A stretch of 64,000 nucleotides of DNA from Actinomycetes bacterium (lineage in GTDB: Bacteria; Actinomycetota; Thermoleophilia; RBG-16-64-13), in contig JAGXFW010000026.1 of the NCBI GenBank assembly GCA_024637035.1, forward strand, positions 181,600-245,599, given 5' to 3'. How positions within the stretch are numbered: position 1 is the first letter of the stretch; every line of letters starts with the position of its first letter. Shown piece by piece: positions 35,955-63,985 of the stretch. The notes under the pieces were generated by a model. That model was not told where the DNA came from. It worked only from the letters and a program-made list of their open reading frames with translations, and made no database searches. A program made the position numbers and the translations under genes.

Positions 35955-35964
35955 GACTGCTCCC

Positions 35965-40248: not shown

Positions 40249-41283
40249 CTACCCCAGAGCTGCCCGAGCCGCCCGCAGGGCGGCGTCAACTCCGGATGCT
40301 CCCACACCATGGTGCGTGACGAGGCGCACGCGAGTCGACCCCACTGCGCCCGCACGCACCCCAGCCGCCGCCAGGCCGGCCACGAACGAGGCCGCGTCCA
40401 GGCCATGCGCGACGACTTCCGCGAACACCATGTTCGTCTGCACGCACTCCAGATCCACATCCAGACCAGGAATGCCGGCCAACCCCTCGGCTAGGCGCCG
40501 TGCGTTCTCGTGATCCTCCGCAAGACGCTCCACCATGGTCTCGAGGGCCACGATGCCGGCCGCCGCCAGCACGCCCACCTGCCGCAGGCCTCCGCCCAGC
40601 ATCTTGCGGGCGCGACGGGCCTCGGCGATCCAATCGGCCGGCCCGGCCAGCATCGACCCCACCGGGGCGCAGAGACCCTTGGAGAGACAGAACATCACGG
40701 AATCCGCATGGGCCGCGATCTCAGCCGCGGGCACTCCCAGCGCCACGGAAGCGTTGAAGAGCCGGGCGCCGTCGAGGTGCACCGCCAGACCGCCGCGATG
40801 CGCCGTCGCGCAGAGGTCGGCCATCAGGTCGAGGGGAGCCACGATGCCACCCCCGGAATTGTGCGGGTTCTCCAGACACAGCAGGCGGCTGCGGGGAAAG
40901 TGCACGTCGTCGGGACGGATCGCGGTCTCCACCTGCTCCGGCCGCAGCAGACCCTTGACGCTCTCGAGTGGGCGGGCCTGGACACCGGAAAGGACGGCTA
41001 GGCCGCCCACCTCCGCGTCGTACACGTGGGAGGTGAGGTCGCAGATCACTTCGTCGCCGCGACGCGTGTGAACGAGCACGGCGATGCCGTTGCCCATGGT
41101 GCCGCTGGGCACGAAGAGGGCCGCTTCCTTGTCCACGCGCGCGGCGGCAAGATCCTCCAGACGGCGCACGGTGGGATCCTCCCCGTACACGTCGTCGCCG
41201 AGTTCGGCCGTAGCCATGGCCCGCAACATCTCTGGCGTGGGGAGAGTGACCGTGTCGCTGCGCAGGTCGACGACGGAGCTCAC
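40249..41283 (-). CDS. ltaE: Low-specificity L-threonine aldolase
   Basis: [20 protein letters not shown]...[11 protein letters not shown]...PSGTMGNG...; 4-nt overlap with the upstream AOR gene. Confidence 0.85.
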
Positions 41284-43160
41284 CCCTCGGCGCCTCTATC
41301 TACCCGCAGGCCCAGCTCGGCCAGCTTGGCCGGCGTGGGCAGGCCGGTGGCCACATCCCAGCCGCGCGCTTCGTAGTATTCGTCGAGCATCTGGTCGAGA
41401 TCGACCGTCGCCCCGGACGAGGGGGTGCCGGTCGGACCCAGGGGCTCCTCAAGGAAGCGGCGCGGCAGGGTGTCGTCCTTACGGGTGACTCCCTCGCGGG
41501 CGATGAACAGCCGCTCCAGGTTGACGATGCGCTCACCCGCCTGCCGCACCTCCTCGCCGGTCATGTCCCAGCCGGTCGAGGCGTTCAGGAGGTCGGCGGT
41601 CTCCTGCCAGTCGAGCACCTCCATGTTGTTGTAGGTGTTCTTGCAGACTCCGAGCGAGTCGCAAACGGCGGCCATCTCCTCGAAGTGCTTGACCACGCGG
41701 CCCTTGCCCTTGTGTTCCAAGCGGAAGGCCGACTCCGCGACTCCGTACCGGCGGATGCCCTCCTCGGCATCGCCGGAGAACTCGAACCAAGGCTCGGAGC
41801 GCAGGTGGTCGGCCCCCCTGCTGGAGACCGCGTTGCCGAGAGCGTAGGCCTTGACGGTTCGCGGGTCGGCCTGGAACACCTCGAGTCCCTTGGAGTGCAT
41901 GGCGATCTCCTCGGAGCCGCCGCCCACCCGCTCGGCCGCCGCGCGTACCCCGTCGGCCAGCACGTCACCGAACCCCTCCCGTCGCATGATCTTCTCGATC
42001 AGCGTCAATACCGCTTCCATGTTCCCCCAGGCGAGATCGAGACCGTCGGTATCGGCAGGCGTCAGGATGCCCCGCTCCTGGCACTCCATCGTCCAGGAGA
42101 TCACCTCGCTGAGGGCGATCGCGTCCATGCCGTAGCGATTGGCCAGGTCGACGCAGCGCAGGGCGAAGGCAAGGTCACCGTTGCCGATGCGCGAGGTGAA
42201 CCCGGCGAGGGGCTCGTACTCCGGCCCCTCGAGCTTGAGCCCGGGGAAGCGGGGATCGTCCACCACCAGGAAGCGGCTGCAGGGGATGGTGCACGAAAAG
42301 CACGCCTTGCTCTTCACCTTGAACCGCGCTTCGATCGTCTCGCCACTCACCTGGTCGGCGTATTCGAAGCGGCCCTCCTTGAAATGCCGGGTGACGATGC
42401 CACCGATGCCGTTCATCGCCTTCACCAGCTTGGTCGTGCCGAGGCGCACCCTGATCTCGTACTCCTCGTGAGAGTAGATACGCTCGTCGACCATGTCGAT
42501 GAGCCGTTGGAACCCTTGCATGTCGGCCACCGGCACCGTCCCGGTGCCCCGCACAGCCACGGCCTTCAAGTTCTTGGAGGCCATGAGCGACCCCATGCCC
42601 GTGCGGGCGGCGGCCCGCACCAGGTTGGTGAAGATCCCGGCGAAACGCACGCCGTTCTCCGCCGCGGGACCGATCACCGCGGTCTGCACGTCGCGATCGC
42701 CAAGCTCCGCCCGGATGGCCTCGGTGGCCTCGGTGACGTCCAGTCCCCAGAGGCCGGAGGCGTCGCGCAGTTCCACCCAATGATCCCAGATCACTAGATA
42801 GACCGGGCTTTCGGCACGGCCTTCCACAATGAGTTGATCCACCCCAGAGAACTTGAGCTCGGGGCCGAAGAACCCGCCGGCGTTGGAGTCGCCCAGGATG
42901 CCTGTTTGCGGCGACATGCCGCTCACGTTGAAACGGGAGCCGCCGGGGAAGAGCGACCCCGCGAGCGGTCCCACCCCAAAGATCAACTTGTTCTCAGGGG
43001 CCAGGCCGTCGGTGTGGGCCGGCACCTCGTCCCAGAGGCGCTTGACGTTGAGGCCTCGTCCGCCCAGGAAGGCGCGGGCTTCGGCCGGGTCGGTGGGCTG
43101 CCTGGTGATGCTCCCGCTCGTCAGATCCACGCGCAGGATGGAGCCGCCGTAGCCGTTCAC
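41280..43160 (-). CDS. Aldehyde:ferredoxin oxidoreductase (AOR family, tungsto-/molybdopterin-dependent)
   Basis: AOR N-terminal domain [13 protein letters not shown]...GGRGLNVK...[20 protein letters not shown] and the large C-terminal pterin/4Fe-4S domain. Start set at GTG 43160, preceded by GGAAAGGGGGA; the ORF-track 764-aa version has an Arg-rich false extension. Confidence 0.85.
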
Positions 43161-43849
43161 TCGGTCCCCCTTTCCTTCTGCGTGGGTCTCTCGCCGCGCG
43201 GCGCCCCTGCGGGCGGGCGGTTCGCCCGGAAGCGGGCGGGCGCTAGACCTGAGGCGCCCGTAGGTTCGGGGTGGGCGCCGGAAGCGGCATCGGCGCCCTG
43301 AGCACCGACGGGACCGCCGCCCGATTCGCCGCCGCCGGATGTGTCGTTTCGGGTATCGCCCGTGCGCCCACCGAGCTGCCGCAGGGCCAGAGTCTCGCGC
43401 CGGTCCCGAGCTTGTTCGTCGACACCGCCCCAGCGTATGGCCCCCGGAGCGCAGCGTTTCACGCAGGCGGGGTCGCCGTCGCAGAGATCGCAGATGAGAG
43501 GTAGGCCGGTGGTTGGATGCATGATCACCATGCCGAAGGGACACCCGTCGGCACAAGCGCCGCAGGCGATGCATTCCTCCTCGTTCAGCCGCACCACGCC
43601 CAGAGAGGCGTCGCGACTCAAAGCACCGGCTGGGCAGGCTTTCACGCAGCCCGGCCGCCGGCAGAGCCTGCAGACCGAAGGCACGTCGAGGCCCTCGGTC
43701 TCGATCTTGGTGACCTTGATGCGGGCTGCACCCGTGCCGAAGCCACCCTCGTGCGCGGCCACGCAGGCCAGCATGCAGGCTTTGCAGCCGCTACATATGT
43801 CGCTCCGCACCAGAATGCGTCCCGCGCGCCCCATGTGCTCCACCGTCAC
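43157..43849 (-). CDS. 4Fe-4S ferredoxin-type electron-transfer protein (AOR partner)
   Basis: Four Cys clusters (CSGCKACMLAC; CRLCRRPGCVKACP; CIACGACADGCP; CDLCDGDPACVKRCAP); GTGA overlap with the AOR start; Gly/Ser-rich C-terminal tail. Confidence 0.75.
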   Translation of the reverse strand: MTVEHMGRAGRILVRSDICSGCKACMLACVAAHEGGFGTGAARIKVTKIETEGLDVPSVCRLCRRPGCVKACPAGALSRDASLGVVRLNEEECIACGACADGCPFGMVIMHPTTGLPLICDLCDGDPACVKRCAPGAIRWGGVDEQARDRRETLALRQLGGRTGDTRNDTSGGGESGGGPVGAQGADAASGAHPEPTGASGLAPARFRANRPPAGAPRGERPTQKERGTE

Positions 43850-44086
43850 CTTTCAATCGTCCGCAGCGGCCGAGCAGCCGGCTCCACGATCACGCCTCCA
43901 GACGCACACGTGCCGATGGCCGCCACACCCGCTGGTGCGGTCCGAACATCAGACCACAGGATAAGGAACGCCCGGAATGCTGTCAATGGGCATGCCCCCG
44001 GTACACCCGCCGTGGCCTTCCCCGGGCTGCCTGCCGGCATGGTCGCCACAATCACCGCTTTGTTGCGATAGGCTTGCTATTGAGAG

Positions 44087-46153
44087 GTGCTTCGACCTAG
44101 TTCGCCGAGAGAGGGGATGCCGATCATGGGAGGGGCAGAACGGCCTGGTCTGAGGATGCCGAGTGCGGTCGTCGTCGCGTTTGCGGTCGCGCTGTCGGCG
44201 CTTCTAGCGTTCACGGGGTCGGCAGCCGCCGCCCTGGAGGTGAGCACCTACGCGGGCAGGACTCAGGTGGCGGGCGCCACCAACGGCGCAAGGATCACCG
44301 CGACCTTCAACGTCCCCGTGGGCATCGCCATCGACGCTCAGGGCACTCAGTACGTCGCTGATCTCGAGAACCGCGTGATACGCAAGATCTCTCCCACCGG
44401 GATCGTCAGCACCTTCGCGGGCAAGGTCGGAGTGGAGGGCTCAGCCGATGGGATCGGTGGGGCGGCACGTTTCCGCGCCCCCGCCGACGTGGCCGTTGAT
44501 TCCTCGGGAAACGTCTACGTAGCCGACGCCGGTAACAGCACTATCCGCAAGATCACCAAGTCCGGGGTGGTGACCACCATCGCCGGGTGGCCGCAAGCGG
44601 TGGGTCACAAAGACGCCAACGGGTCCTTTGCTCGATTCGGCATGCCCTATGGGATCGCGGTGGGCGAGGTCGGCGGCCAGGTCACGCTCTACGTGGCCGA
44701 CACGTTCAATAGCGTGATCCGAAGGATCAGCCAGGCGGGCGACGTGACCACGATCGCGGGCACGCCGGGATCGTCCGGTTCTGCCGATGGCACAGGCGCT
44801 AGCGCCCGGTTCGACTTCCCCACGGGACTCGCCGTGGACTCATCCGGCCTCACCCCGGTGGTCTACGTAGCCGATGCCAACAACCACACCATCCGACGGA
44901 TCGGATATGACTTCCTGCTCAAGGTGTGGAAGACCGGCACCATCGCCGGGGAGGCCGGCGTCTCGGGCAGCGACGACGGGACCATAGCGCACTTCGCCAA
45001 GCCTTGGCACCTCGCGCTCGACGGTCCTCGAAGGCTATACGTGGTGGACTTCGAGAACCACACGGTGCGTGAGATCGCGAAGTTCCGGCTGGGCTCTATC
45101 GATATCTTCTCCGTCTCGACCGTCGCGGGAAAGGCCGGCGTGATGGGCAGCACAGACGGCCCCGCGGCTGACGCCCGTTTTGCGCAACCGATGGGAGTCG
45201 CCGTGCACCCCGCCGGCACCGTCTACGTGGCCGAGTACGCATTCCAGACTATCCGCCGCATCGCCGAGGCTCCCACCTTCTCCCAGTTCGTCGGACCCGA
45301 CCGCTACGAGACCGCCATCTTGATCTCCAAGAAGGCCTATCCCGGCGGGGCGACCAACGTGTTCCTGGTGAAGGGGGACAACTTCCCCGACGCCCTGGCG
45401 GCCGCACCCCTCGCCAAGGCCTATGACGGCCCGGTGATCCTCACGCCGTCCGGCGGTCTGACGCCGGCGGTCAAGGCCGAACTCACGCGTCTCAACCCCG
45501 GCAAGGTGTTCTTCATCGGGCTGCAAGACTCACTGAAACCCGCCATCCTCCAAGCCGTGTCGGGCGTCAAGATCGAGACCATCCGCGGGGTCGACCGCTA
45601 CGACACGGCAGCGCGTCTCGCCGATGCTCTGGTCGCGAAGATCGGAACCCCCTCCCGTATCGTCCTGGTGGCCGGGGACAAGTTCCCCGACGCCCTTTCG
45701 GTGGCGCCCCTGGCGGGGAACAAAGGCTGGCCCATCCTGCTCACGCCTCAGGCGGGGCCGCTGCCGAACTACACCCGGGACAAGATCGTGTCTTTGGGCG
45801 TCACGCAAGCCCTGAGGGTGGGCACGTACGTCGGCCTGCCTGCCGGTGTGGCGGTGGTCTCCAAAGTAGGCACCGACCGCTACGACACGAGCGCCCAGGT
45901 CGCCCAGTATGGTGACATGCAGGGACTCTCCTACGCGCACCTGGCGGTAGCCACGGGAGAGAACTACCCCGACGCCCTGGTGGTGGGACCGTATCTCGCC
46001 AAGGACGGGGGCATCCTCCTGCTCACCCATCCCACCGCGCTGCCGAGCCCCATCCGGACTCAGCTCGTACTGAACCGGGACTGGATCGGACAGGTGGACT
46101 TCCCGGGGCTGCCGGCGGGGATGATCTCCATCGTCAAAGGGGTGGTGGAGTAG
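44087..46153 (+). CDS. Secreted NHL-repeat beta-propeller protein with three C-terminal CWB2 (cell-wall-binding repeat 2) domains
   Basis: Signal peptide; repeated (Y)VAD..N..IRKI/RRI NHL blades; three GxDRYxTA...PDALAAAPLA...GPVILTP...IGL CWB2 repeats. Confidence 0.7.
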   Translation: MLRPSSPREGMPIMGGAERPGLRMPSAVVVAFAVALSALLAFTGSAAAALEVSTYAGRTQVAGATNGARITATFNVPVGIAIDAQGTQYVADLENRVIRKISPTGIVSTFAGKVGVEGSADGIGGAARFRAPADVAVDSSGNVYVADAGNSTIRKITKSGVVTTIAGWPQAVGHKDANGSFARFGMPYGIAVGEVGGQVTLYVADTFNSVIRRISQAGDVTTIAGTPGSSGSADGTGASARFDFPTGLAVDSSGLTPVVYVADANNHTIRRIGYDFLLKVWKTGTIAGEAGVSGSDDGTIAHFAKPWHLALDGPRRLYVVDFENHTVREIAKFRLGSIDIFSVSTVAGKAGVMGSTDGPAADARFAQPMGVAVHPAGTVYVAEYAFQTIRRIAEAPTFSQFVGPDRYETAILISKKAYPGGATNVFLVKGDNFPDALAAAPLAKAYDGPVILTPSGGLTPAVKAELTRLNPGKVFFIGLQDSLKPAILQAVSGVKIETIRGVDRYDTAARLADALVAKIGTPSRIVLVAGDKFPDALSVAPLAGNKGWPILLTPQAGPLPNYTRDKIVSLGVTQALRVGTYVGLPAGVAVVSKVGTDRYDTSAQVAQYGDMQGLSYAHLAVATGENYPDALVVGPYLAKDGGILLLTHPTALPSPIRTQLVLNRDWIGQVDFPGLPAGMISIVKGVVE

Positions 46154-46214
46154 GATCGGCCACAGGGCCCGCGAACCGCGCTGGGCGCCCAGATACCGTG
46201 AGATCGGAGGAGAC

Positions 46215-48203
46215 ATGATCGCCACAGAGACCACCGACTCCAGGACGCATCTCAACTCCGCCCTGATCATCGCAGCCCTGCTCTCGATCGTCGCGTTCAC
46301 GTTGGGGGTGGCCGCAAAGCCTGCCGCCGCCTCCTCCTACCATGTCACGACATTCGCCGGGAAGGCGGCGGTCTCGGGTGTCGCCAACGGCACCTTGGCC
46401 GCGGCACGATTCGACAACCCTGCGGGGATCGCCTTCGGATACGACGGCACCATGTACGTCGCGGACACCGACAACCACACCATCCGCAAGATCACGCCGG
46501 CGGGAGTGGTGACCACGCTCGCCGGCAAGCCGGGTGTGGAGGGCAGCGCCGACGGCACCGGGGCGGCGGCGCGGTTCAGCTACCCCGAGGGCATCGCGGT
46601 CACCCCCGGTGGTGTGCTCTATATCGCCGACAGCGGGAACCAGACCATCCGCAAGATCACGCCGGCAGGAGTGGTGACCACGCTTGCAGGCACACCCGGT
46701 GTCCAGGGTAGCGCCGACGGCACCGGGGCGGCGGCGCGGTTCCGGTACCCCGGAGACATCGCCCTAGACGTTGCCTTCAACCTGTATGTCACCGACGTCA
46801 ACAACCACACCATCCGCAGGGTCACGCCCGCGGGCGTGGTCTCCACGTGGGCAGGCACAGCCGGGGCGTCCGGCGGGGTCAACGGTACCGGCGCGGCGGC
46901 GCGGTTCAATTCCCCCCAGGGCATCGCCGTCGACGCCGGGGGCACCCTCTACGTGACCGAGAAGTTCGGGCGACGCGTTCGGACGATCTCCTTTGCGCGG
47001 GTCGTTTCCACCCTTGCCGGTAGCGGGGCGAGCGGCAGCATCGACGGCACCGGCACCGCGGCGCGGTTCGTCATGCCCTATGGAATCGCCGTCGACAGCA
47101 CTGGCACCGTGTTCGTCACCGACAACCAGACCATACGCACGATCACGCCGGCAGGTCAGGTCACCACTGTGGCGGGCAAGCCGGGGGTCTACGGAAGCGC
47201 CGACGGAACCGGTACAGCGGCTCGTTTCTTCATCCCCTACGCGGTCGACGTTGACTCCTCGGGCGATCTCTTCGTGGCCGACATCAACAACCACACCGTC
47301 CGTCGCGTGTCCACGTCGCCGCAGTATCTGACCCTCGTCGGGTCTGATCGCTACGAGACCGCCATCCTCGTCTCAAAGCAGGCGTACCCGGGCGGAGCGC
47401 CCGCGGTCGTGCTCGCCAAGGGCGACGACTTCCCCGACGCGCTTGCGGCCGCGCCACTGGCCGTCGCCTACGGGGGGCCGGTCATCCTCACCCCCTCCTG
47501 GGGTCTCACCAGCGCCGTCGAGAACGAGCTGAAACGACTCGATCCCACCACCGTGATCTTCATCGGACTTCCGGCCAACGTCAAAACCGAGCTCGTGGCG
47601 GTGCTCCCCACCGCCACGGTGAAATCCTTCGTAGGCACGGACCGCTACCACACCGCCGCCCTGCTCGCCGCGGAACTCAAGACCAAGCGCGGGTCGGTGG
47701 TCAGAGTGGTGCTCACCGCCGGCGACAAGTTCCCCGACGCGCTCTCCGTGGCGCCGCTGGCCGCGAAGAAGGGTTGGGCTATCATCCTCACCCCGCAGGC
47801 GGGCCCCTTGCCCGACGTGAGCCGCGACGCCATCCAGGACCTCGGCGTGACCCGAGCCCTGATAGTGGGCACCTACGTGCAACCCCCGGCTGTGGTGACC
47901 CAGAAGGTCTCGAAGGTCGGAGCCGACCGCTACCACACCAGTGCACTCGTGGGCGAGTACGCGAAGCTCGTGGGACTCTCATACGCGCACCTCGCCGTAG
48001 CTACGGGAGAGAACTATCCCGACGCCTTGGTCGTGGGGCCATACCTTGCCAAGGACGGTGGGATACTCCTGCTCACCATGCCCAACGGAGTTCCGGCGAC
48101 CATCCAGGCGGCCCTCATCATCAACCGCGACGAGGTGGAGCACGTGGTCTTCCCCGGGCTGCCGCCCGCCGTGATAACCACCGTGAGGGTGATGCTGAAA
48201 TAG
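46215..48203 (+). CDS. Paralogous secreted NHL-repeat protein with three CWB2 domains
   Basis: Same architecture as the upstream gene (YVADTDNHTIRKITPAGVVTTLAG... x6; GSDRYETA/GTDRYHTA/GADRYHTS CWB2 repeats). Confidence 0.7.
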   Translation: MIATETTDSRTHLNSALIIAALLSIVAFTLGVAAKPAAASSYHVTTFAGKAAVSGVANGTLAAARFDNPAGIAFGYDGTMYVADTDNHTIRKITPAGVVTTLAGKPGVEGSADGTGAAARFSYPEGIAVTPGGVLYIADSGNQTIRKITPAGVVTTLAGTPGVQGSADGTGAAARFRYPGDIALDVAFNLYVTDVNNHTIRRVTPAGVVSTWAGTAGASGGVNGTGAAARFNSPQGIAVDAGGTLYVTEKFGRRVRTISFARVVSTLAGSGASGSIDGTGTAARFVMPYGIAVDSTGTVFVTDNQTIRTITPAGQVTTVAGKPGVYGSADGTGTAARFFIPYAVDVDSSGDLFVADINNHTVRRVSTSPQYLTLVGSDRYETAILVSKQAYPGGAPAVVLAKGDDFPDALAAAPLAVAYGGPVILTPSWGLTSAVENELKRLDPTTVIFIGLPANVKTELVAVLPTATVKSFVGTDRYHTAALLAAELKTKRGSVVRVVLTAGDKFPDALSVAPLAAKKGWAIILTPQAGPLPDVSRDAIQDLGVTRALIVGTYVQPPAVVTQKVSKVGADRYHTSALVGEYAKLVGLSYAHLAVATGENYPDALVVGPYLAKDGGILLLTMPNGVPATIQAALIINRDEVEHVVFPGLPPAVITTVRVMLK

Positions 48204-52408: not shown

Positions 52409-53689
52409 CTACCCGTCCGCCGTACCGCCCGCGAAAGGCCCCGTGCGCGGGCAGCATCCCCGCCATTCCACCTCCATCTCCGAGTAGCCAACAGACTGCG
52501 ACCACGCGAAACGGCCCAGGTCTTCTCGCCAGCGACTGAAGATGGCGACGACCTCGGTTCCTAGGCCCGGGGCCGCGGTGTCGACCGCTTCGACCATGGC
52601 TCCAAGGCCCAGCGACAGGCGTCTCACCAGGGCCTGCCGCAAGGGTCGGGGCAGATCGTAGCCACGACGTGCGCCCAGGGCATCCACAAACCGCCGCGCT
52701 CCAGCTTCCGACCCCGTGATCATGTCGTAGAGCAGCCCGGCGGCCCGATCGAGCCACTCGGCATCGACCTCCACCATCGCGGACAGGAACTCGAACAGCT
52801 CGTCGCCCCCGAAGAGCCGCTCCTCCAGTCGCTCGGTGACCCCCGGGAGCCGGCGCTTGAACATGGTGCAGAGCAGCCGGCCGGCTGCGAACCAATCGGT
52901 GTGATCGCAGGTCAACACGCTCTCGGGAAGGCAACCGAGGTCGACCGACAGGAACCTCCTCGCGACGAGGTCGAGGAAGCGCTCCTTCTCTTCGGCCGAA
53001 AGTGGGCGCCGAACGGCGGCAAGACGGGCGGCACTCGGCCGAGCCTCGCTGAACGGCAAGTCGGCGGCGCGCTCGACGAGATTCCCCCGACCGAGCTTCA
53101 CACCCTCCATGTAGGGCTCGAGCCACCAGTCGGGTTCGACGCAGTCGAAGACGCGACCGAGCAGTTCGGCGGCGTGGGCGAACCCATACTCGAGGTCGTT
53201 CCAAACCGTGGCTACGAGATCGACGGTGAGGGCGCACAGGTCGTCCGGCCACCGGCGAAGGGCGAGCGCCAGGAACTCCGGCGCCCACTCCCGACGTGGG
53301 GGCCGCAGCCGCACGGAATGGAAGTCGGAGGACAGCACGACGTCGTCGTCGAGGCCGAACAACTCGTGCAGGTCCACATGCTCCATGCCCACCCAAAGGT
53401 CTTCGTCGTCGTCGAACAACCCGTGCCGCGCGAGCACCTCCCAGACCAGATCCCAAGGAAGACCGAGCAGTTCCGCCACCTGACTCAACCACACCGGCGT
53501 GCGTGGGTGCATGTTGAATTCGGCTGCACAGGCCAGCAACACCTGGCGATCGATCGGCGCGATGTCCAAGCGTTTGCAGGCACCTATGCCCAGCCGCATG
53601 CGTTCGCTGGATGAGCCGACCCGCGCGGAGATCTCGCGGGCGCGCGCCGGCCGAGGGTCACGAGCGGGTCGGGGGTCGTGAGAACTCAT
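52409..53689 (-). CDS. Hypothetical protein (about 426 aa), acidic, no recognised family
   Basis: Long ORF with GC3-biased codons; start at MSSHDP; the overlapping alternative frames (52371..53492 minus, 52901..53614 plus) are Arg-rich or antisense-like. Confidence 0.4.
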   Translation of the reverse strand: MSSHDPRPARDPRPARAREISARVGSSSERMRLGIGACKRLDIAPIDRQVLLACAAEFNMHPRTPVWLSQVAELLGLPWDLVWEVLARHGLFDDDEDLWVGMEHVDLHELFGLDDDVVLSSDFHSVRLRPPRREWAPEFLALALRRWPDDLCALTVDLVATVWNDLEYGFAHAAELLGRVFDCVEPDWWLEPYMEGVKLGRGNLVERAADLPFSEARPSAARLAAVRRPLSAEEKERFLDLVARRFLSVDLGCLPESVLTCDHTDWFAAGRLLCTMFKRRLPGVTERLEERLFGGDELFEFLSAMVEVDAEWLDRAAGLLYDMITGSEAGARRFVDALGARRGYDLPRPLRQALVRRLSLGLGAMVEAVDTAAPGLGTEVVAIFSRWREDLGRFAWSQSVGYSEMEVEWRGCCPRTGPFAGGTADG

Positions 53690-53987
53690 GGCTGGCCTTC
53701 TCCTGCGTGACGACAGTCGGATGACCGCCGGGGCGATAGCGGAGATTCCAGCATAGAGAACGGGTCGGACGGAAAGACGGGGAGGTCGGGCGGGCTTTCC
53801 CTCCAGACTGCGGCATCGACCGCGAGGAGTTCCTGCAGCGTAGGAACGACCTCCTGTCGCAGCCGGGCGCCGCCAGCGAATAGAGCGCCCAACGCGACTC
53901 ACCCGCCCACTGAAGCTCCCCCATGGCGCCTCGGTCCGCTCCCGCGGGCTGGGGCGCTTCCTTGTCTAGACCCGAACCTCGCGCCAC

Positions 53988-54661: not shown

Positions 54662-55007
54662 CTTACCGCCCTTCCCTACCTGTGTCGACACCTGCGTAGC
54701 GACCGCGCCACGCCCTCTTCCCGGGGGTATGCCCCGTCAGAGGTCCAACGATACGCCGGGGTCAAGAGCGTCGATGCTAGCCGACAGATAGGGCGCAGGG
54801 CATACGCAGAAGGTCACAGGATGGCGCCGGGGGGTTCGGCGCCATCCTGTGTGAGGGCGGGTGCACGGGCGGGTCGGGGCGAAGTAGGCCGCGGTGCGCC
54901 GGCGCGGCTCGGACTCGTCGCCCGACGCGGACCCGCCCGGCTCCTCGCGGAGACGCGCGTCGGGCGGCAGTGCGCCGCACCGCGACGCACTGCGCGGCGC
55001 CCGCGCC

Positions 55008-56120
55008 CTACCTCATCGCCGCGAGCACGTCCTTGAGCGCCTCCACGAACACCACGTTCTCCTCGGGCGTGCCCACCGTCACGCGTAGGTGAGTGGGGAG
55101 GCCGCACGAAGTCTGGGGTCGCACGATCACCCCGCGCTGAAGCAACTCGTCGAACGCCTTGGCCGCGTCGATGCCGATGTCCACCAAAACGAAGTTGGTC
55201 CATGAGGGAGCGTAGGCCAAGCCCATGGCGGTGAAGGCTTCGTAGAGCTGGGCCCGTCCCTTGTCGGCGAACTGTACTGAGGCACGCAGATGTTCCTGGT
55301 CGGCGAGGGCCGCCACCGCGCCGGCCTGGGCGATGGAGCTCACGTTGAACGGTTGGCGCACCTTGTTCACCGCTTCGGTGAGGGCGGGCCTGGCTACCGA
55401 GTAGCCGATGCGTGCCCCCGCCAGTCCGTACGCCTTCGAGAAAGTGCGCAGCGAGATGACGTTGCGACCCTCCAGGATCAGCTTGCGGCTGTCGGGGTAG
55501 TCGAAGTCGTGCACGTACTCGGCGTAGGCTTCGTCGAGCACGACCAGCAGCTCCTCGGGCATCCGGTCGAGGAAGCGTTCCACCGACGTCGCGTCCACCA
55601 CGGTGCCCGTGGGGTTGTTCGGATTGCAGATGATCACCATCTTGGTCTTCGACGTGACGGCCTCGGCCATGGCGTCGAGGTCGAAGGCGAAGTCCATCAG
55701 CGGCACCTGCACCGACCGCGCCTTCATCAGGTTGGCCATGAACTCGTACGTCGAGAACGAGGGCCACCCGTAGAGCAACTCGTCACCCGGCTCAAGGACG
55801 GTCTCGGCGAGCATGTTGAGGATCTCGGCGCAGCCGCAGCCGATGAGGAAGTGGTCGGCGCTCAGGTCCATGTGGCTAGCCAGCGCGTGCCGGAGCACGT
55901 AGCTGCCGCCGTCCGGATACATGTGGCACTCGGCCACCATGGCCACCATGGCCGCTTTCGCGGCGGGTGAGGCGCCGAACGGATTCTCGTTCGACGCCAA
56001 CTTGACGAAGTGCTCGATGCCGAGCTCGCGCTTGCACTCGTCGATGGGCTTGCCCGGCACGTAAGGCTGGATGGCCAACACGTTCTCGCGACAGGTGCGA
56101 TCCACGCCGCATTCGTTCAT
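55008..56120 (-). CDS. Class I/II aminotransferase (histidinol-phosphate aminotransferase family)
   Basis: LASNENPFG...NPNNPTG...SKAYGLAGARIGY motifs; start ATG overlaps the upstream stop (ATGA); the 674-aa ORF-track version is over-extended. Confidence 0.8.
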   Translation of the reverse strand: MNECGVDRTCRENVLAIQPYVPGKPIDECKRELGIEHFVKLASNENPFGASPAAKAAMVAMVAECHMYPDGGSYVLRHALASHMDLSADHFLIGCGCAEILNMLAETVLEPGDELLYGWPSFSTYEFMANLMKARSVQVPLMDFAFDLDAMAEAVTSKTKMVIICNPNNPTGTVVDATSVERFLDRMPEELLVVLDEAYAEYVHDFDYPDSRKLILEGRNVISLRTFSKAYGLAGARIGYSVARPALTEAVNKVRQPFNVSSIAQAGAVAALADQEHLRASVQFADKGRAQLYEAFTAMGLAYAPSWTNFVLVDIGIDAAKAFDELLQRGVIVRPQTSCGLPTHLRVTVGTPEENVVFVEALKDVLAAMR

Positions 56121-57580
56121 CGGACCGCGCCCTCTTCCAACCGGTGGAACCCCGCGACGAGCGCATCCATCTTCGCGCCGAACTGCGCATCGAGCGGTTC
56201 CGGCGTGTGGGTAGCCAGCAGGTGGGTCACCCGGCGCCGCGCCTTCTCGGCCATATCGACGGAGCCGTCGGCCTCCCACTTGTCGCGTCCCTTGCGGTTG
56301 AGCAGGGTGGGACGCCACTGCACGTCGCGCACGTGTTGGTAGGTGTGCTCCTGGGTCATGAAGTGACCGCCCGCGCCGACCTCGGCGATGGTGTCGAGGG
56401 CGAGGGTCTCGGGCGAGATCTCGATGCCCTTGAGGAACCGCCGGTTCATGGCGACGAACTCGTCGGTGATCACGATCTGCTCGAGGGATCCGGTGAGCCC
56501 GAAATCGAGGTAGCCCACGTCGTGGTTCAGGTTGGACCCGGCCTGCATCACCAGGAAGGTGAGTTCGGCCACTTCCATGCCCATCTGTACGTCCACGGCC
56601 TGAGAATCGGTGGTGCCGCCGAAGCCGAAGTTGGGCAGGTCGAGCCAGCGGGACATCTCCACCTGGATCATGTGGGCCATCAGGCCTTCGATGGAGTTGT
56701 ACGAGCACTGGGCGGTCACCATGTCGAGCGTGGCGAGGCCGCTCCCGAACACGAATGGCGCGCCCGGACGCCGAAGTTGGTGCACGACGAGGCCGAACAG
56801 CGACTCCGCCATGCCTTGAGCGATCTGCCCGGCGGTGGTGATGGGTGCGCTGGCGCCCGCCATCGGCGCCGAGACGTAGATGGCCGGCACGCCGGTGTCG
56901 GCGCAGAGCATCAATTTGTCGAGGCTCTCCCAGGGGTGCTCCAAGGGGGAGATCGGCTCGAGGTACGCGATGAAGTACGGGGTCTCGCGCAACGCCTCGG
57001 CCCCGCCGCGGAGCTCGCCGGCGATGTCGCACATCACCTTGAGGTCGCCGGCGTTCTCGGCCGTCACCACGAGCGGCTTGGTAGTGTTCTCGACCATGGT
57101 CTTGAAGCTCACCAGGTACGAGTCGTGCGCCTCGATGTCCGAGGGGTACGCCGACGACATGACGAAGTCCATGTTCGGCAGCGCGTCGACCAGGCGGGCG
57201 GCCCGGACGATGTCCTCGAGGACGCTCTTGCGCCTGATGCCGGTCTCCAGGTCGAGGGTGTGCATGAGGTCGGAGCCCGTGCCGAAGTACGAGTTGTACC
57301 CGCCGAGGTCCATGGCCGGATCACCGACGCGGTCGTGCATCTTGATCACGCTGGGCGCGCTCTCGATGGCCTTCGCGACGAGGTCCCGGGGGATGGTCAC
57401 CAGACGGTCGTCCTTGACGGTGCAGCCCGCATCGACGAGCATGGCGAGGGCTTCGTCGTTGTGCACGCGCATACCGATGGTCTCGAGGATGGTGAGGGTC
57501 CCCTCGTGCAGGTCGATCTTCTCCTGCTCGGTCATGAAGCTCAGGCGCCCCACCCGCGATCCGTTGAGCAGCTCCTTCAT
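56117..57580 (-). CDS. MttB-superfamily (trimethylamine / glycine-betaine-type) corrinoid methyltransferase homologue, non-pyrrolysine
   Basis: 487 aa; TIM-barrel MttB-family features (MKELLNGSRVGRLSFMTEQEKIDLHEGTLTILETIGMRVHNDEAL...); no in-frame amber codon, so it belongs with the non-Pyl quaternary-amine methyltransferases. Confidence 0.7.
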   Translation of the reverse strand: MKELLNGSRVGRLSFMTEQEKIDLHEGTLTILETIGMRVHNDEALAMLVDAGCTVKDDRLVTIPRDLVAKAIESAPSVIKMHDRVGDPAMDLGGYNSYFGTGSDLMHTLDLETGIRRKSVLEDIVRAARLVDALPNMDFVMSSAYPSDIEAHDSYLVSFKTMVENTTKPLVVTAENAGDLKVMCDIAGELRGGAEALRETPYFIAYLEPISPLEHPWESLDKLMLCADTGVPAIYVSAPMAGASAPITTAGQIAQGMAESLFGLVVHQLRRPGAPFVFGSGLATLDMVTAQCSYNSIEGLMAHMIQVEMSRWLDLPNFGFGGTTDSQAVDVQMGMEVAELTFLVMQAGSNLNHDVGYLDFGLTGSLEQIVITDEFVAMNRRFLKGIEISPETLALDTIAEVGAGGHFMTQEHTYQHVRDVQWRPTLLNRKGRDKWEADGSVDMAEKARRRVTHLLATHTPEPLDAQFGAKMDALVAGFHRLEEGAVR

Positions 57581-57700
57581 CGTGATGCCCCCGCGTTCTC
57601 AGCCATGCCTACTCCTTGTAGTTTGATCCAGGCGGATCTATATGATCCAGTCCCGGCCCGCGAAGGGCCCGGGATAACCGTTCGTATCGGCCGCGTCTCC

Positions 57701-58462
57701 CTACGGAGAGACTCCGGCCAGACGGGCGCTGACGGCCCGCCCACTTTCCTCGAGTGCTTCGATCAGACCCTCGAGGTCTTCGTTCTCCCGACGGCTTGTG
57801 GGCCAGGCGAGACTGAGCGCCGCCACAGCCGTGCCGCGGCCGTCGAAGACCGGGACCCCTATGCCGGTGGCGTCGGGATCGACCGCCCCCGACGTGACGA
57901 CGTGACCTTCCGCACGGACGCGCTCGAGAGACTCCAGGATGCGCTCCCGGGTGACGACCTCGCCGTTCGCGTAGCGCTTTCCTGCGTTGGCGGAGACGAC
58001 CCTCTCGATGAGCCTCGCGTCCAGATGTGCCAGGAGCGCGGTGGCCGAGCCGGCATAGAGCGGAGCGATCTGCCACTTGCCGAAGGCCACCCGCACGCCG
58101 CGGGGGCTCTCCACAGCCTCGATGCACACCACTTCGAGCCCGGAACGCACGGTCAGATAGGAGGTCTCGCCCGTAGTCCGGACGAGGTCTTCCATCAGCG
58201 GCAGAGCGAGTTTCGGCAGGTCGCCGCCGATCTGCTGGTTGGCGGCGCGGGCCAGCTCGAAGAGAGCCGGCCCCAGCGTGATCTGGCTGCGCCCTTCGCG
58301 GAGTAGCAGCCCGCGGTCCCGCAGAGCCTGGACGAGCCGGTACGCCGTGCTGTCCTTGAGGCCAGTGCGCTCCGCGATCTCGCTCACCGAGAGCGGCCCG
58401 GCCGACTCAGCCACGAGGAACAAGATGTCGAGGCTGCGGTCGAGTGTCTGCGTGCCCGCCAT
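57701..58462 (-). CDS. IclR-family transcriptional regulator
   Basis: LDRSLDILFLVAESAGPLSVSEIAERTGLKDSTAYRLVQALRDRGLL HTH plus C-terminal effector domain. Confidence 0.85.
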   Translation of the reverse strand: MAGTQTLDRSLDILFLVAESAGPLSVSEIAERTGLKDSTAYRLVQALRDRGLLLREGRSQITLGPALFELARAANQQIGGDLPKLALPLMEDLVRTTGETSYLTVRSGLEVVCIEAVESPRGVRVAFGKWQIAPLYAGSATALLAHLDARLIERVVSANAGKRYANGEVVTRERILESLERVRAEGHVVTSGAVDPDATGIGVPVFDGRGTAVAALSLAWPTSRRENEDLEGLIEALEESGRAVSARLAGVSP

Positions 58463-58533
58463 CGGACGTCGCTACCGTCGGACCCTGAAGCCGACGCCCG
58501 TCTTCACTTCGCCGATGCTCACGTCGCCCGCGC

Positions 58534-59352
58534 TCAGACCCAGCTGTGTAGGACTTCGCCGCCGGTGACCGTCGAGCCGTTGCTGTAGTACTGCGCGCCG
58601 AGCACTTCGATCGGGGCGAGAGCGGCCATGTGCTCCTCGACCTCGGACGGGAAGAACTTCAACGTGGCGTCGCCCAGCCACACATCGCCGGTGCGGAGGT
58701 CGCACCCGTTGAGCTTCACCAGTTCGAGGACGGAAGGAGCCGCACCCGGCACCAAACTCGGGAAATGGCGGAGGTTGATCACCGGACGGCTGAAGATCGT
58801 GGGCAGATCGGCCTCGGTGCCCTTGCCGGTGATGGTCATCATGCCCTCAGCCAGCCGCTCTCCATGAGCGGACACGAAACCCTTGAGCTTCGACCCGGGG
58901 CCGATGGGATCCATGCGCGGGTTCAGGGGATTGGGGTCGCTCATGATGGTGACACCGAGTTTCTTCGGAAAGCCCATGAACCAGCCGCGGGCCAGGGTGA
59001 AGTCGTTGTCCACCCAGGTGAGGACGCAGGTGCGGCCTTGCTCACCCTTGTAGGAGCAGCCGACCCAGGCGATGGTCTCGCGATAGAAGGTGCGCTCGGG
59101 GTTGACCTCGACCATGTCCGTCTGGTTGTCCCAGACCGACCACCACTTGCTGAAGGCGATGTTGACCACGTCGGGCTCGTCGCCGGGCTCAAGTGGATCG
59201 GGCAGGTAGGCCGCGATGGCATCGGGATCGGCCCGGTACGTGATGTTGATGTACTGCGAGGCGAAGTGCCACGGCAGGTCACCCACCACCGAGGACTTGC
59301 CGTTGGGAGTGAGCGGATACGAGAAACCCTTCAAATCACCGATGTTCGTCAT
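58534..59352 (-). CDS. Acetoacetate decarboxylase (ADC)-family protein
   Basis: 272-aa beta-cone-like protein with YP...Y...ITY and conserved Lys/Glu positions resembling the ADC/MppR family; family assignment made by eye only. Confidence 0.5.
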   Translation of the reverse strand: MTNIGDLKGFSYPLTPNGKSSVVGDLPWHFASQYINITYRADPDAIAAYLPDPLEPGDEPDVVNIAFSKWWSVWDNQTDMVEVNPERTFYRETIAWVGCSYKGEQGRTCVLTWVDNDFTLARGWFMGFPKKLGVTIMSDPNPLNPRMDPIGPGSKLKGFVSAHGERLAEGMMTITGKGTEADLPTIFSRPVINLRHFPSLVPGAAPSVLELVKLNGCDLRTGDVWLGDATLKFFPSEVEEHMAALAPIEVLGAQYYSNGSTVTGGEVLHSWV

Positions 59353-59504: not shown

Positions 59505-59535
59505 GATTCTCATATATAGATATTGATTCTCATAT
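59505..59535. promoter_or_regulatory. AT-rich direct repeats GATTCTCATAT (x2, 20-nt spacing) upstream of the ADC/IclR/MttB operon
   Basis: ggattctcatatatagatattgattctcatattgtgg lies in the 355-nt divergent intergenic region, is strongly AT-rich against a roughly 70 % GC background, and is a candidate operator/promoter. Confidence 0.4.
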
Positions 59536-62050: not shown

Positions 62051-63985
62051 CTACCCCGTGGGCACGCTCGGCGGGAAGCGCGTCTCCATCTCCGTGCTGA
62101 TGGCGGCGGGCAGCCCCACGATGTCGCAGATCCGCACGGTGGAGATGTTGCCCTCGAGCAGCGTCACTATCCGACTGGGGAGCGCAGTCTGTGCCGTCAG
62201 CAGGACGGTCCCGGACACACCCTCCAGGTAGGGCCCCACCACCAGCGCATCGGGATAGTTGTCGCCCTTCACGAGGGCGATGTGCTCGAAGGTGACCCCG
62301 AAGGCCTTGCCGTATTCGGCCACGAGGGCGCTCGTGTGGTAGCGGTCCACGCCCACAAGATCGGTGGGGGTGACCCGCGCGGGCAGACCGACCCAGTTCC
62401 CTACTCGGAGCGCCTTGGTCACCTTCAGGTCCAGTATCTTCTGCCGGGTGACGGCAGGCAGGGGGCCCTTCTGAGGTGTAAGCAGCACGGCCCAACCCTG
62501 CTTGGCCGCCAGCGGCCCGACAGAGAGAGCGTCGGGGAAGTTGTCGCCCGCCACCAAGACGACTCGGGCGACGGAGCCCCTCTTGGCCAGGAGTTCGTCG
62601 GCAATGAGCGTGGCCGTGTGATAGCGATCCGTTCCGCGGATCTCGTGGAGATCGCTATCGGTGAGGCCGGGCAGCGCCGCCTTCACCTGGGCGTTCAGCG
62701 CGACCGGCAGTCCGATGACGAACACCGTGCCCGGGGCGAGACGTTTCAGTTCCTGCCGCACCGTGTCGTTCAGCCCGGTGGAGGGCGTGATCATGATGGG
62801 GCCCCCGTAGGCGGCGGCCAGGGGACCGGCGGCCAGGGCGTCGGGATAGTTGTCGCCCTTCACCAAGAAGACGACCGGTGCACCGGAGGGATAGGCCGCC
62901 TTGGAGATCTGGACGGCGGTCTGGTAGCGGTCGGCCCCACGGATGGTGCTGTACAACGGCTGAGCCGGTCGCGCCACGACCGTGATGGTGACTGTGGCGG
63001 GAATCGACGCGGACTCCCCATCGAACACCGCATAGGTGAATGTGTCCTCACCGACGAAGCCCGGGCTGGGTTGGTAGGTGAAGGAGCCGTCGTCCCCGAG
63101 GCTCAGAGCTCCGTGACCGGGCCAGGCGACCACCTCGGGCCACAGGGTATCGCCGTCGGCATCGTAATCGTTGGCGAGAACACCCTCCGATGCGGGCACC
63201 GAAAGGAGGGTGCCCTGCGTTGCTTCGTAGGAGTCGTCGTAGGCGATGGGCGGAGTGTTCGGCAATTCTGTGACCGAAAGCACGTAGGGTCCCCACGATG
63301 CGCCGTCGTTCGCGTTCCTCACCATCAAGAAGACGGTCTGATCGGCTGTGCAAGACCAGACGATGCGGGAGAACGAAGAGGCGCCCCCGTTATCGTCCTC
63401 CAAGGCCGTGCCTTCGGCATAGAGATACAGATAGGTGTCTGTAATGGAGTTGGCGCTGGGCTGCGTCTCAATCACGTACGTGGTGCCGGCCAGGGCCTGG
63501 AACGTCACCCAATCGTGGTCGCCCAGAGGGTAGATCGAACGCTCCTGGCTAGGGCCTCCGACAACGATCGATTTGCTCTGCTCGAACGTGTCGTCAGGTT
63601 CGTAGGCGTCCGGACCCACGGCAACGACTACGAATCCCACGCTGAGGACTGCGGCGCCGTCCCAGTTAGTGTCCACCGACTGGAGCCAGTGGCCGGGGAC
63701 GTTGACACTGAACCGGTATTCGCCCGGTCCACGTGCCTCGGTCTCGTACAAGACGTACCATCCGTCAGCTCGCGAGTAGGCCTCCCCTACCCATTCGTAC
63801 GAACTCCCGTTGGACCAGTAGGCCTGAACGTGTGCACCCGTGACGTTTGCGCCGGTGCCGGCGTAGGTCACCGTGCCCTGCGCGATGAGCTTGGCGGAGG
63901 CCAGGGCCACATCGTGGGTCAGGGGAGCGCCGCCGTTCCAGGTGACGTCATATGTCTGAGAGACTCGGCCCCCGGCCGCGTACAC
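62051..63985 (-). CDS. Cell-surface protein with three C-terminal CWB2 domains and an N-terminal Ig-like/Asp-rich repeat region (5' end probably beyond the window)
   Basis: GADRYQTA/GTDRYHTA/GVDRYHTS CWB2 repeats; upstream DYDADGDTLWPEVV...FTYQPSPGFVGEDTFTY cadherin/Big-like segment; no signal peptide at the called M, so the ORF likely continues past coordinate 63999. Confidence 0.65.
   Translation of the reverse strand: MYAAGGRVSQTYDVTWNGGAPLTHDVALASAKLIAQGTVTYAGTGANVTGAHVQAYWSNGSSYEWVGEAYSRADGWYVLYETEARGPGEYRFSVNVPGHWLQSVDTNWDGAAVLSVGFVVVAVGPDAYEPDDTFEQSKSIVVGGPSQERSIYPLGDHDWVTFQALAGTTYVIETQPSANSITDTYLYLYAEGTALEDDNGGASSFSRIVWSCTADQTVFLMVRNANDGASWGPYVLSVTELPNTPPIAYDDSYEATQGTLLSVPASEGVLANDYDADGDTLWPEVVAWPGHGALSLGDDGSFTYQPSPGFVGEDTFTYAVFDGESASIPATVTITVVARPAQPLYSTIRGADRYQTAVQISKAAYPSGAPVVFLVKGDNYPDALAAGPLAAAYGGPIMITPSTGLNDTVRQELKRLAPGTVFVIGLPVALNAQVKAALPGLTDSDLHEIRGTDRYHTATLIADELLAKRGSVARVVLVAGDNFPDALSVGPLAAKQGWAVLLTPQKGPLPAVTRQKILDLKVTKALRVGNWVGLPARVTPTDLVGVDRYHTSALVAEYGKAFGVTFEHIALVKGDNYPDALVVGPYLEGVSGTVLLTAQTALPSRIVTLLEGNISTVRICDIVGLPAAISTEMETRFPPSVPTG

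Follow-up and report, generated by a model that had tools for sequence, protein, structure and literature searches.

A four-gene cluster from a Thermoleophilia bacterium, coding for a non-pyrrolysine MttB-family methyltransferase, an aminotransferase, an MppR-like enzyme and an IclR regulator, belongs to a widespread module

The MttB superfamily of methyltransferases is very large, and few of its substrate specificities have been assigned. The characterised non-pyrrolysine members, MtgB (glycine betaine), MtpB (proline betaine), MtcB (carnitine), MtyB (gamma-butyrobetaine) and MthB (phosphocholine), each work with a corrinoid protein, a corrinoid:tetrahydrofolate methyltransferase and the activase RamQ. 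MtgB binds glycine betaine through Y97, R312, H348 and F356, and R312, which is conserved in MtgB, MtcB, MtpB, MthB and MtyB, binds the acidic group (PMC13080624). In Eubacterium limosum the genes of MtpB, MtcB and MtyB are separate from those of the corrinoid protein and the activase (PMC8604678). Within the acetoacetate decarboxylase (ADC) superfamily, MppR works with an aminotransferase in enduracididine synthesis (PMC10367076), and the MppR-like enzymes act on 2-oxo acids with a C4 substituent, MppR and RohR using 4-hydroxy-2-ketoarginine and RohR being described as a retro-aldolase (PMC10367076, PMC10724926). No mention of an MttB together with acetoacetate decarboxylase was found in the literature searched. 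In this paper we describe a four-gene cluster in a 64,000-nucleotide stretch (the window) of contig JAGXFW010000026.1 from a Thermoleophilia bacterium (assembly GCA_024637035.1), in which genes of both families lie together with those of an aminotransferase (AT) and an IclR-family regulator, and we compare it with related loci in metagenomes. The cluster belongs to a widespread, undescribed module; the module itself is new, and otherwise novelty is likely only for its substrate and pathway.

All four open reading frames (ORFs) are intact and lie head to tail on the minus strand, with transcription in the order ADC-like gene, IclR, MttB and AT (Table 1). The stop codon of the MttB gene and the start codon of the AT gene share an ATGA (cgATGAac, 56120-56117), the ADC-IclR spacer is 71 nt and the IclR-MttB spacer is 120 nt. 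In the frames that passed the scan, those of the ADC, IclR and MttB genes, GC at third codon positions is 0.83-0.93; the AT frame was filtered out, as it stays open upstream through the MttB gene. A preliminary description of the window, made from the sequence alone, had proposed these four genes and a translational coupling of MttB to AT: the ORFs lie exactly where it placed them, with strong full-length Pfam matches to the families it named, and the ATGA overlap is real. It had named the regulator before the ADC-family gene; the IclR gene is in fact inside the cluster, between the ADC-like and MttB genes, and not ahead of it. None of the flanking genes, which encode a divergently transcribed GT4 glycosyltransferase, a hydrolase and CWB2 wall proteins, is related to the cluster.

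Metagenome contigs were scanned with an alignment of ADC homologues, which yielded 80 loci (these and the other loci compared are designated by L numbers), and ORFs were called and their neighbours clustered. Among 83 loci with a gene of the ADC clade, an AT gene lies within 4 kb in 25 and an MttB gene within 4 kb in 20; with many contigs being short, both counts are lower bounds. The whole set of four, in unchanged order, is found in two other organisms: in L028/L038, with identities to the window proteins of 83% for MttB, 87% for ADC, 82% for AT and 74% for IclR and intergenic gaps of 8, 23 and -4 bp, and in L029 (MttB 73%). L028 and L038 come from the same organism, and L038 is the closest relative of the window cluster; its order is corrinoid protein (a C-terminal fragment at the contig end), aldehyde:ferredoxin oxidoreductase (AFOR), ADC, IclR, MttB, AT and SBP_bac_5. 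Two further loci have the orders SBP_bac_5-OppC-OppDF-OppB-MttB(SFTHG)-MttB(ARLHF)-ADC-AT-corrinoid (L120) and MttB-ADC-AT followed by the N-terminus of a corrinoid protein (L122); with MttB, ADC and AT proteins 57-61%, 62-64% and 54% identical to those of the window, they are orthologous modules. Transporter genes accompany many of the modules: a BCCT (betaine/carnitine/choline) carrier is encoded inside three of them (L077, L090 and L100), and Opp-type ABC transporters with SBP_bac_5 occur in many. The modules come from metagenome contigs and bins labelled subsurface, sediment, lake, bioreactor and activated sludge, and a scan of a genome collection for close relatives gave a best match of only 56% identity, so that the species has no genome of its own in that collection.

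The window MttB is a member of the MttB superfamily (PF06253, 292.9 bits against a cutoff of 25, profile positions 30-493 of 500) and shares its fold family over the full length with the characterised non-pyrrolysine enzymes, at about 30% identity to MtgB. Among solved structures it matches MtgB (7.6e-62) and the trimethylamine methyltransferase MttB of Methanosarcina barkeri (9e-55). With the model for pyrrolysine MttB, TIGR02369, it scores 380.7 bits against a cutoff of 525. M. barkeri MttB (PDB 7xcl) is of the same superfamily and is likewise aromatic (Tyr) at the position of MtgB R312, but the window ORF is uninterrupted by any in-frame UAG and has T323 where the pyrrolysine of 7xcl aligns, which bears out the non-pyrrolysine assignment of the preliminary description.

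Like the characterised non-pyrrolysine systems, the window MttB is without pyrrolysine and keeps His348, a protein with B12-binding_2 and B12-binding domains is encoded in orthologous modules and near relatives, and a methyl-tetrahydrofolate methyltransferase is encoded in one related locus (L119). It differs from them in its gene, which is coupled to those of an aminotransferase and an ADC-superfamily enzyme, and in its pocket. The MtgB residues Y97, R312, H348 and F356 correspond to S103, F318, H353 and G361, so that only one of the four, the histidine, is kept; Phe replaces Arg312, and the cation-pi residues Y97 and F356 become Ser and Gly. The preliminary description had counted an MttB devoid of the conserved substrate-binding residues against its own reading. 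For the MtgB residues this is what we find, but a loss of function is not implied: since the variant signature is conserved across the module, the altered pocket argues for a different substrate.

The signature, S/L-F-x-H-G/A, is present in 20 of 26 MttBs from ADC-linked loci, even though identity to the window MttB is only 34-43% for those of the 20 beyond its own subclade; the remaining six have Arg at the R312 position. Among its 120 closest homologues the R312 position is Trp in 115 and Phe in five. All five Phe-type proteins sit in MttB-ADC-AT modules, and for two of them, P0014 and P0109, this was predicted before their contexts were inspected, while no ADC gene was found in the five Trp-type loci examined (L001, L027, L030, L118 and L119). 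A neighbour-joining tree places the Phe-type proteins in two lineages, and the clade that descends from their common ancestor takes in the entire Trp-type set. In fuller modules the Phe-type MttB is accompanied by an MtgB-like paralogue that bears Arg, with the signature ARLHF in L120 and GRLPW in L077 and L102. The window MttB represents an uncharacterised branch of the family that has a pocket signature of its own and is embedded in a conserved module of three enzymes. One Trp-type locus has a further partner: at L030:10001-13541, as also in L031 and L032, a Trp-type MttB 65% identical to that of the window shares an operon with a corrinoid protein and with an MtmB-family protein whose ORF is uninterrupted, with no in-frame stop at the pyrrolysine codon site. 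A recent report links a non-pyrrolysine MtmB homologue of a methanogen to the use of tetramethylammonium and choline (PMC13044021).

The aminotransferase passes the hisC model TIGR01141 (341.4 against a cutoff of 276.55) and falls below the cutoff of NF002878 (346.5 against 374). Among solved structures the closest is M. tuberculosis ArAT (4r2n, 4.5e-74), with actinobacterial HisC structures at 5e-44 and 6e-38 (the latter M. tuberculosis HisC, 4r8d). The pocket tetrads of the M. tuberculosis enzymes are V86/F110/L112/F246 in ArAT and N103/Y127/M129/Y261 in HspAT (PMC4703992). The window protein has A/F/T/F, against V/F/L/F in ArAT and N/Y/M/Y in HspAT, and so is without the hydrophilic tetrad of HspAT. 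Compared with M. tuberculosis ArAT (Rv3772) it retains the residues that bind PLP and the carboxylate or phosphate group (Lys, Asn157, Arg322 and Arg330 in ArAT numbering) and has Phe at both aromatic specificity positions, but Ala and Thr where ArAT has Val and Leu; unlike HisC, it lacks the Tyr residues by which HspAT binds histidinol phosphate. The gene lies outside any histidine or aromatic amino acid biosynthesis operon. The name HisC-like, given to it earlier, holds for the model match but not for the pocket or the best solved relative, and judged by its sequence the enzyme is ArAT-like and not a true HisC.

The ADC-like protein is closer to MppR (2e-42), Sbi00515 (5e-39) and Swit_4259 (4.5e-35) than to true ADCs (6.6e-10). 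The known reactions of this family are the cyclisation or cleavage of 4-hydroxy-2-oxo acids and the condensation of pyruvate with aldehydes. It has the Schiff-base Lys, the Glu and the RGW-x3-FPK motif common to MppR, Sbi00515, Swit_4259 and RohR: K130, the catalytic residue of the FPK motif, occupies the position of the Schiff-base lysine K156 in MppR, E92 aligns with ADC Glu76 and Sbi00515 Glu84, and both are invariant in 40 homologues. The position of Arg29, the carboxylate-binding residue of true ADCs, falls in an alignment gap; the numbering Arg29/Glu76/Lys115 is that of the C. acetobutylicum enzyme. MppR Gln152 is replaced by Met and MppR Glu283 by Ser, the roles of the MppR residues being read from the alignment. 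The preliminary description had singled out the MppR Lys and Glu residues for inspection; K130 and E92 are in place, and Glu283 is Ser. The MppR model TIGR04460 is the best NCBIfam match, at 157.9 bits against a cutoff of 380, and the true-ADC model NF002614 gives 45.7 bits against a cutoff of 150. The protein is accordingly MppR-like, and from these comparisons neither an acetoacetate decarboxylase nor an MppR equivalog.

The pairing of the ADC-like gene with an aminotransferase gene resembles that of MppR with MppQ (PMC10367076), an analogy drawn in the preliminary description, and the cluster could on this ground be biosynthetic, the MppR/MppQ-like pair making a non-proteinogenic amino acid and the MttB running in reverse or acting as a tailoring enzyme. 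MppR is indeed the best-matching model and does partner an aminotransferase (PMC10367076). The analogy holds at the level of the superfamily, but the score of 158 bits is far from the cutoff of 380, Glu283 is Ser, and the context differs from that of MppR in being catabolic in relatives, whose modules have solute uptake genes, catabolic-type regulators, AFOR and corrinoid proteins. Among the cluster and flanking genes there is no candidate for an MppP-type pyridoxal phosphate-dependent oxidase, though no search was aimed at MppP itself, and no nonribosomal peptide synthetase or other biosynthetic gene is nearby. We consider a biosynthetic cluster improbable.

A looser possibility is that the genes are neighbours by chance, the AT being a housekeeping HisC and the ADC-like protein an ordinary acetoacetate decarboxylase, neither tied to MttB. 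The AT does pass the hisC equivalog cutoff, and homologues of the ADC clade are named acetoacetate decarboxylase in their sources. The gene order, however, is kept in at least five lineages with genes that overlap or are tightly spaced, the AT pocket is ArAT-like with ArAT as the best solved match, the true-ADC model is far from its cutoff and Arg29 is absent, and Phe318 correlates with the ADC-AT context. A chance neighbourhood is already disfavoured by these data, and we give it almost no weight.

The preliminary description had noted that the MttB has no corrinoid partner. Within the window, beyond which the 271-kb source contig extends, this holds: tblastn with two different seeds, from L030 and L120, found no corrinoid protein in the 64 kb, Pfam scans of about 35 window ORFs, with a few small ORFs outside the scans, gave no B12-binding, Pterin_bind or RACo domain, and tblastn together with Pfam scans of most ORFs found no second MttB and no MtmB gene. 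As a property of the system it is unlikely to hold. Immediately after each of the nearest MttB genes that lie outside the module comes one for a corrinoid protein with B12-binding_2 and B12-binding domains (L030-L032, 65% identical to the window MttB; L001 and L002, 56%; L003, 53%), and among orthologous modules a corrinoid gene lies downstream of AT in L120 and L122 and upstream in L038, with another in L077. Because orthologous modules and the nearest non-module MttBs have an adjacent corrinoid gene, independence of this MttB from corrinoid is unlikely, and the missing local partner has precedent, since E. limosum encodes MttB enzymes apart from their corrinoid protein.

It could nevertheless be argued that the absence is real and that the MttB works without a corrinoid protein, being cofactor-independent or using free cobalamin or another acceptor. 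No corrinoid gene occurs in 64 kb, the position that it has in L120 and L122 is taken here by hairpins and a toxin-antitoxin pair, and some MttB enzymes methylate free cob(I)alamin in vitro (PMC13080624). Against this stand the adjacent corrinoid protein in three orthologous modules and in all of the closest relatives examined, the characterised precedent for a remotely encoded partner, and the same pocket signature in copies with and without an adjacent corrinoid gene, and we see only a slim chance that the enzyme does without one.

We favour, by a little over even chances, the reading that the operon serves to break down an N-methylated amino compound and is a shortened version of the widespread MttB-AT-ADC-like module. 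A role with methylated amines or modified amino acids, either in breakdown or in synthesis, had been suggested before; the uptake genes, the catabolic-type regulators and the AFOR of related modules point to the catabolic half rather than to the biosynthetic one. From its family membership and the orthologous clusters, the MttB would move a methyl group from the substrate nitrogen to a Co(I) corrinoid protein encoded outside the 64-kb window, from which the methyl would pass to tetrahydrofolate. The ArAT-like enzyme, to judge by the translational coupling and its pocket residues, would then take the primary amino group off the demethylated product and leave a carbonyl compound. The conserved catalytic residues of the MppR-like enzyme suggest that it would bind this carbonyl as a Schiff base on Lys130 and, through a decarboxylation, a retro-aldol reaction or an elimination, cleave a C-C or C-X bond, with release of an aldehyde. 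In the closest relative, L038, an AFOR gene adjoins the ADC gene, which fits an aldehyde product, and the AFOR would there oxidise the aldehyde released. MttB genes adjoin AFOR genes in two deltaproteobacterial metagenome-assembled genomes (MAGs) as well (L017:10001-15245 and L021:10001-13241); these MttBs are 38% identical to that of the window and the AFORs 47% identical to that of L038, so the MttB-AFOR pairing recurs outside Actinomycetota.

A sister clade of Trp-type MttBs is linked to histidine utilisation. At L119:2645-20605 (Thermoleophilia bacterium FR_37, GCA_027493445.1) a full histidine-utilisation set is interleaved with three MttB paralogues: a divergent IclR gene, hutU urocanase, a corrinoid protein, a Trp-type MttB (61% identical to that of the window), histidine ammonia-lyase, two Arg-type MttBs, hutI imidazolonepropionase, glutamate formiminotransferase, cyclodeaminase and a methyl-tetrahydrofolate:corrinoid methyltransferase. 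The ammonia-lyase gene lies 8 bp downstream of the Trp-type MttB gene and its product carries the Ala-Ser-Gly triad of the 4-methylideneimidazole-5-one (MIO) group. The cluster in L027 is similar; in L118 an AT gene overlaps the start of a Trp-type MttB gene by 4 bp, and the lyase triad is Ala-Cys-Gly. An ergothionase-type lyase that would release trimethylamine for the MttBs was considered for L119 and rejected, as ergothionases lack MIO and this lyase has the MIO Ala-Ser-Gly of true histidine ammonia-lyases. The three MttB paralogues together with a complete histidine-to-glutamate route suggest a stepwise demethylation of a methylated histidine (e.g. hercynine) to histidine, with the Trp-type MttB doing a late step. 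L119 is a candidate for a route that would lead, with the help of a corrinoid protein, from methylated histidines such as hercynine to glutamate; nothing relevant on hercynine with corrinoid was found in the literature searched. By analogy with L119, a Phe-type MttB that is ATGA-coupled to an aminotransferase may deliver a free amine. For glycine betaine, physiological evidence exists for stepwise corrinoid-linked demethylation to sarcosine, with the enzymes not assigned (PMC9768040).

We tentatively propose that in the modules the Phe-type MttB takes the later methylation states through to the free amine, and that the Arg-bearing paralogue of the fuller modules attacks the betaine. An alternative scheme, in which the substrate is a quaternary amine with a free alpha-amino acid at its far end (an amino acid of onium type or with a trimethylated side chain, trimethyllysine for example), would have the MttB take one methyl off the quaternary nitrogen and the AT, independently, turn the alpha-amino end into a 2-oxo acid, from which the MppR-like enzyme, by gamma-elimination or retro-aldol cleavage, would form pyruvate and an aldehyde. 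This scheme keeps the MttB within the known chemistry of its family (PMC13080624), the missing Arg312 fits a carboxylate far from the onium centre, MppR-like enzymes act on C4-substituted 2-oxo acids and RohR is a retro-aldolase (PMC10367076, PMC10724926), and the AFOR gene beside the ADC gene in L038 and the BCCT and Opp-type transporters suit it. It leaves unexplained, however, the two or three MttB paralogues of two pocket types in fuller modules, the joining of the sister Trp-type MttB to a histidine ammonia-lyase that needs a free alpha-amine, and the link of the ADC clade to dihydropyrimidinase and carbamoylase, and no natural substrate of that kind with a C4 leaving group was identified. 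Taken as a whole, we regard it as unlikely.

The contexts of the ADC clade outside MttB loci bear on the substrate. The clade is 53-67% identical across its contexts, and for this reason it probably acts on one small common intermediate. In L037 the order is AT (42% identical), ADC (58%), carbamoylase (TIGR01879, 407 against a cutoff of 204), dihydropyrimidinase (TIGR02033, 520 against 393) and OYE; this operon (L037:5865-11762, from a Clostridiaceae MAG, with similar loci in L116, L117 and L067) encodes a HisC-type AT, the ADC-like protein, a hydantoinase/carbamoylase-family amidase, dihydropyrimidinase and an OYE reductase with a LysR regulator, and it looks like a reductive pyrimidine or hydantoin route feeding the same AT and ADC-like pair. 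Elsewhere ADC-clade genes adjoin flavin amine oxidases, or a Bmp-type ABC transporter near nucleoside phosphorylases. Other neighbours of the clade, such as CysS, phosphoribosyltransferase, POR, FtsQ/FtsZ and ArgRS, resemble lineage-specific housekeeping synteny and were set aside as giving no functional clue.

The position of the clade beside dihydropyrimidinase and carbamoylase, flavin amine oxidases and nucleoside uptake genes led us to a beta-alanine skeleton, in which an N-methylated beta-alanine or beta-alanine betaine would be converted to beta-alanine, malonate semialdehyde and finally acetaldehyde and CO2. Beta-alanine would come from reductive pyrimidine breakdown, polyamine breakdown or N-methylated beta-alanine, so that one hypothesis would cover all of the ADC contexts, and we hold it as speculation. 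None of the other substrates considered (homoserine betaine, trimethyllysine, S-methylmethionine, phosphocholine-derived amines, aspartate/oxaloacetate, glycine betaine/glyoxylate) explains all of the contexts. In its broadest form, which we put forward as doubtful, our proposal is that Phe- and Trp-type MttBs are a large, uncharacterised branch that removes the later methyls from N-methylated amino acids without pyrrolysine and hands the free amine to an aminotransferase or a histidine ammonia-lyase, that with Arg-type paralogues they complete betaine-to-amino-acid routes in anaerobic Actinomycetota and other anaerobes, and that the MppR-like enzyme is a new Schiff-base decarboxylase or lyase of the malonate semialdehyde type. 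The candidate betaines are hercynine for the hut-linked clusters and beta-alanine betaine or a relative for the ADC-linked modules.

Several observations weigh against the catabolic proposal or parts of it. The searches of the 64-kb window found no methyl-tetrahydrofolate methyltransferase and no RamA-type activase, ADC-MttB pairs occur without an adjacent AT gene in L035, L043, L064 and L072, and the ADC clade is also found in many contexts with no methylamine link. For the beta-alanine idea in particular, the MppR-like active site is unfavourable, as is the gap at the carboxylate-binding Arg29; the MppR-like enzymes tested bind alpha-keto acids, and the Sbi00515 enzyme was reportedly found, in 2015, to have no decarboxylase activity. 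We know of no class I-beta aminotransferase that uses beta-alanine, nor, to our knowledge, is there a biochemical precedent for removal of a last methyl by a non-pyrrolysine MttB. All characterised non-pyrrolysine MttBs act on quaternary amines (PMC13080624, PMC12155760), and nothing relevant on a malonic or malonate semialdehyde decarboxylase with ADC was found in the literature searched.

The regulator also counts on this side. The window protein is of the IclR family, with HTH_IclR and IclR_C both above their cutoffs, and it reached no NCBIfam equivalog. The gene is about 74% identical and in the same position in L028/L038 and L029, and it is kept only in this closest subclade, other modules having GntR, AsnC, sigma-54 activator or LysR regulators. 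As the regulator differs between modules, control of the cluster by the IclR protein is presumptive; the protein probably senses the substrate or an intermediate.

Upstream of the ADC-like gene two exact direct repeats form a candidate operator, followed by weak promoter-like hexamers that were read by eye and did not pass the consensus promoter scan (Table 1). A similar pair, ATAGTGAGAAT ... ATATGTGAGAAG, then TTGAC, precedes the ADC gene in L038, and the exact ATATGAGAATC motif has no other occurrence across 123 loci. The consensus scan of the cluster for promoters and terminators gave no promoter and two terminator-like matches, both inside genes. The stem-loop of the IclR-MttB spacer is not conserved, the L028 spacer being only about 23 nt. 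Downstream of AT are GC-rich hairpins and then a MazE/PIN toxin-antitoxin pair; the hairpins were not called as terminators because neither has a T tract, and they are the probable end of the transcription unit.

Table 1. Genes and candidate signals of the four-gene cluster (positions in the window)
Feature	Position	Strand	Description
ADC-family protein gene	59352-58534	minus	272 aa; PF06314, E 1.3e-49; first gene of cluster
IclR regulator gene	58462-57701	minus	253 aa; HTH_IclR 3.8e-14 (52.6 bits) and IclR_C 1.4e-23 (83.8 bits)
Non-pyrrolysine MttB-family gene	57580-56117	minus	487 aa; PF06253, E 3.7e-87; S-F-T-H-G pocket signature
Class I/II aminotransferase (AT) gene	56120-55008	minus	370 aa; PF00155, E 2.4e-62; subfamily I-beta, ArAT-like
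Candidate operator, two exact 11-nt direct repeats ATATGAGAATC (coding strand), 20-nt spacing	59505-59535	minus	repeat family D1
Weak promoter-like TTGACG(17)TAACGT	59501-59473	minus	just downstream of the ATATGAGAATC repeats; hexamers read by eye
9-bp inverted repeat (stem-loop) in IclR-MttB spacer	57651-57674	minus	inverted repeat I1
GC-rich hairpins 3' of AT stop	54815-54993	minus	12-nt arms 54967-54993; perfect 15-nt arms 54815-54851; inverted repeats I1, I5

A mini-ORF of nine codons (MAENAGASR; 57577-57617, minus strand) precedes the MttB gene, its TGA overlapping the MttB ATG as ATGA, and has a strong AAGGAG ribosome-binding site (57617-57612) at 5-nt spacing. It may serve as a leader for translational coupling or be there by chance, and it is absent from L028/L038, whose IclR-MttB spacer measures about 23 nt. 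On the other side of the cluster, the MazE-like antitoxin (54622-54392) and PIN-domain toxin (54395-53988), both on the minus strand, occupy the site of the corrinoid or SBP_bac_5 gene of orthologous modules, which suggests a rearrangement of the 3' end of the cluster. Beyond them a long minus-strand ORF at 52409-53902 (497 aa), called as 426 and 67 aa on the identical Logan contig L025, had no match in the Pfam scan.

Further into the window, the region 33297-43790 (minus strand) encodes an AFOR of 836 aa, about 200 of them in an N-terminal extension, an aminotransferase of class V, a Peripla_BP_6 binding protein and Liv-type permease and ATPase proteins, together with a further ORF at 40249-41295; it is a probable second amino-acid catabolic operon, and its AFOR is only 40% identical to that adjoining the ADC gene in L038. 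Three large secreted proteins with CWB2 cell-wall-binding repeats are encoded at 44084-48203 and 62051-63985, two of them adding NHL repeats and one cadherin/Big_9 domains, and they may be surface-layer or wall-anchored proteins. A stand-alone FTCD_C gene (formiminotetrahydrofolate cyclodeaminase-like) at 7484-8194 adjoins an exonuclease/GIY-YIG protein; the FTCD_C domain also occurs within the MttB/hut clusters of L118 and L119.

With every substrate newly assigned in the MttB superfamily (glycine betaine, proline betaine, carnitine, gamma-butyrobetaine and phosphocholine), the picture of how methylated amines are turned over anaerobically, and of the precursors of trimethylamine and methane, has changed. 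If the pathway of the present cluster is another quaternary-amine demethylation, it would add a useful yet incremental new specificity. The operon marks a conserved and widely distributed module in which a distinct MttB pocket is tied to deaminating and carbonyl-cleaving enzymes. The module is thereby a handle on whether corrinoid methyltransferases carry demethylation through to the free amino compound, and on a physiological role for the MppR-like ADC family outside antibiotic biosynthesis.

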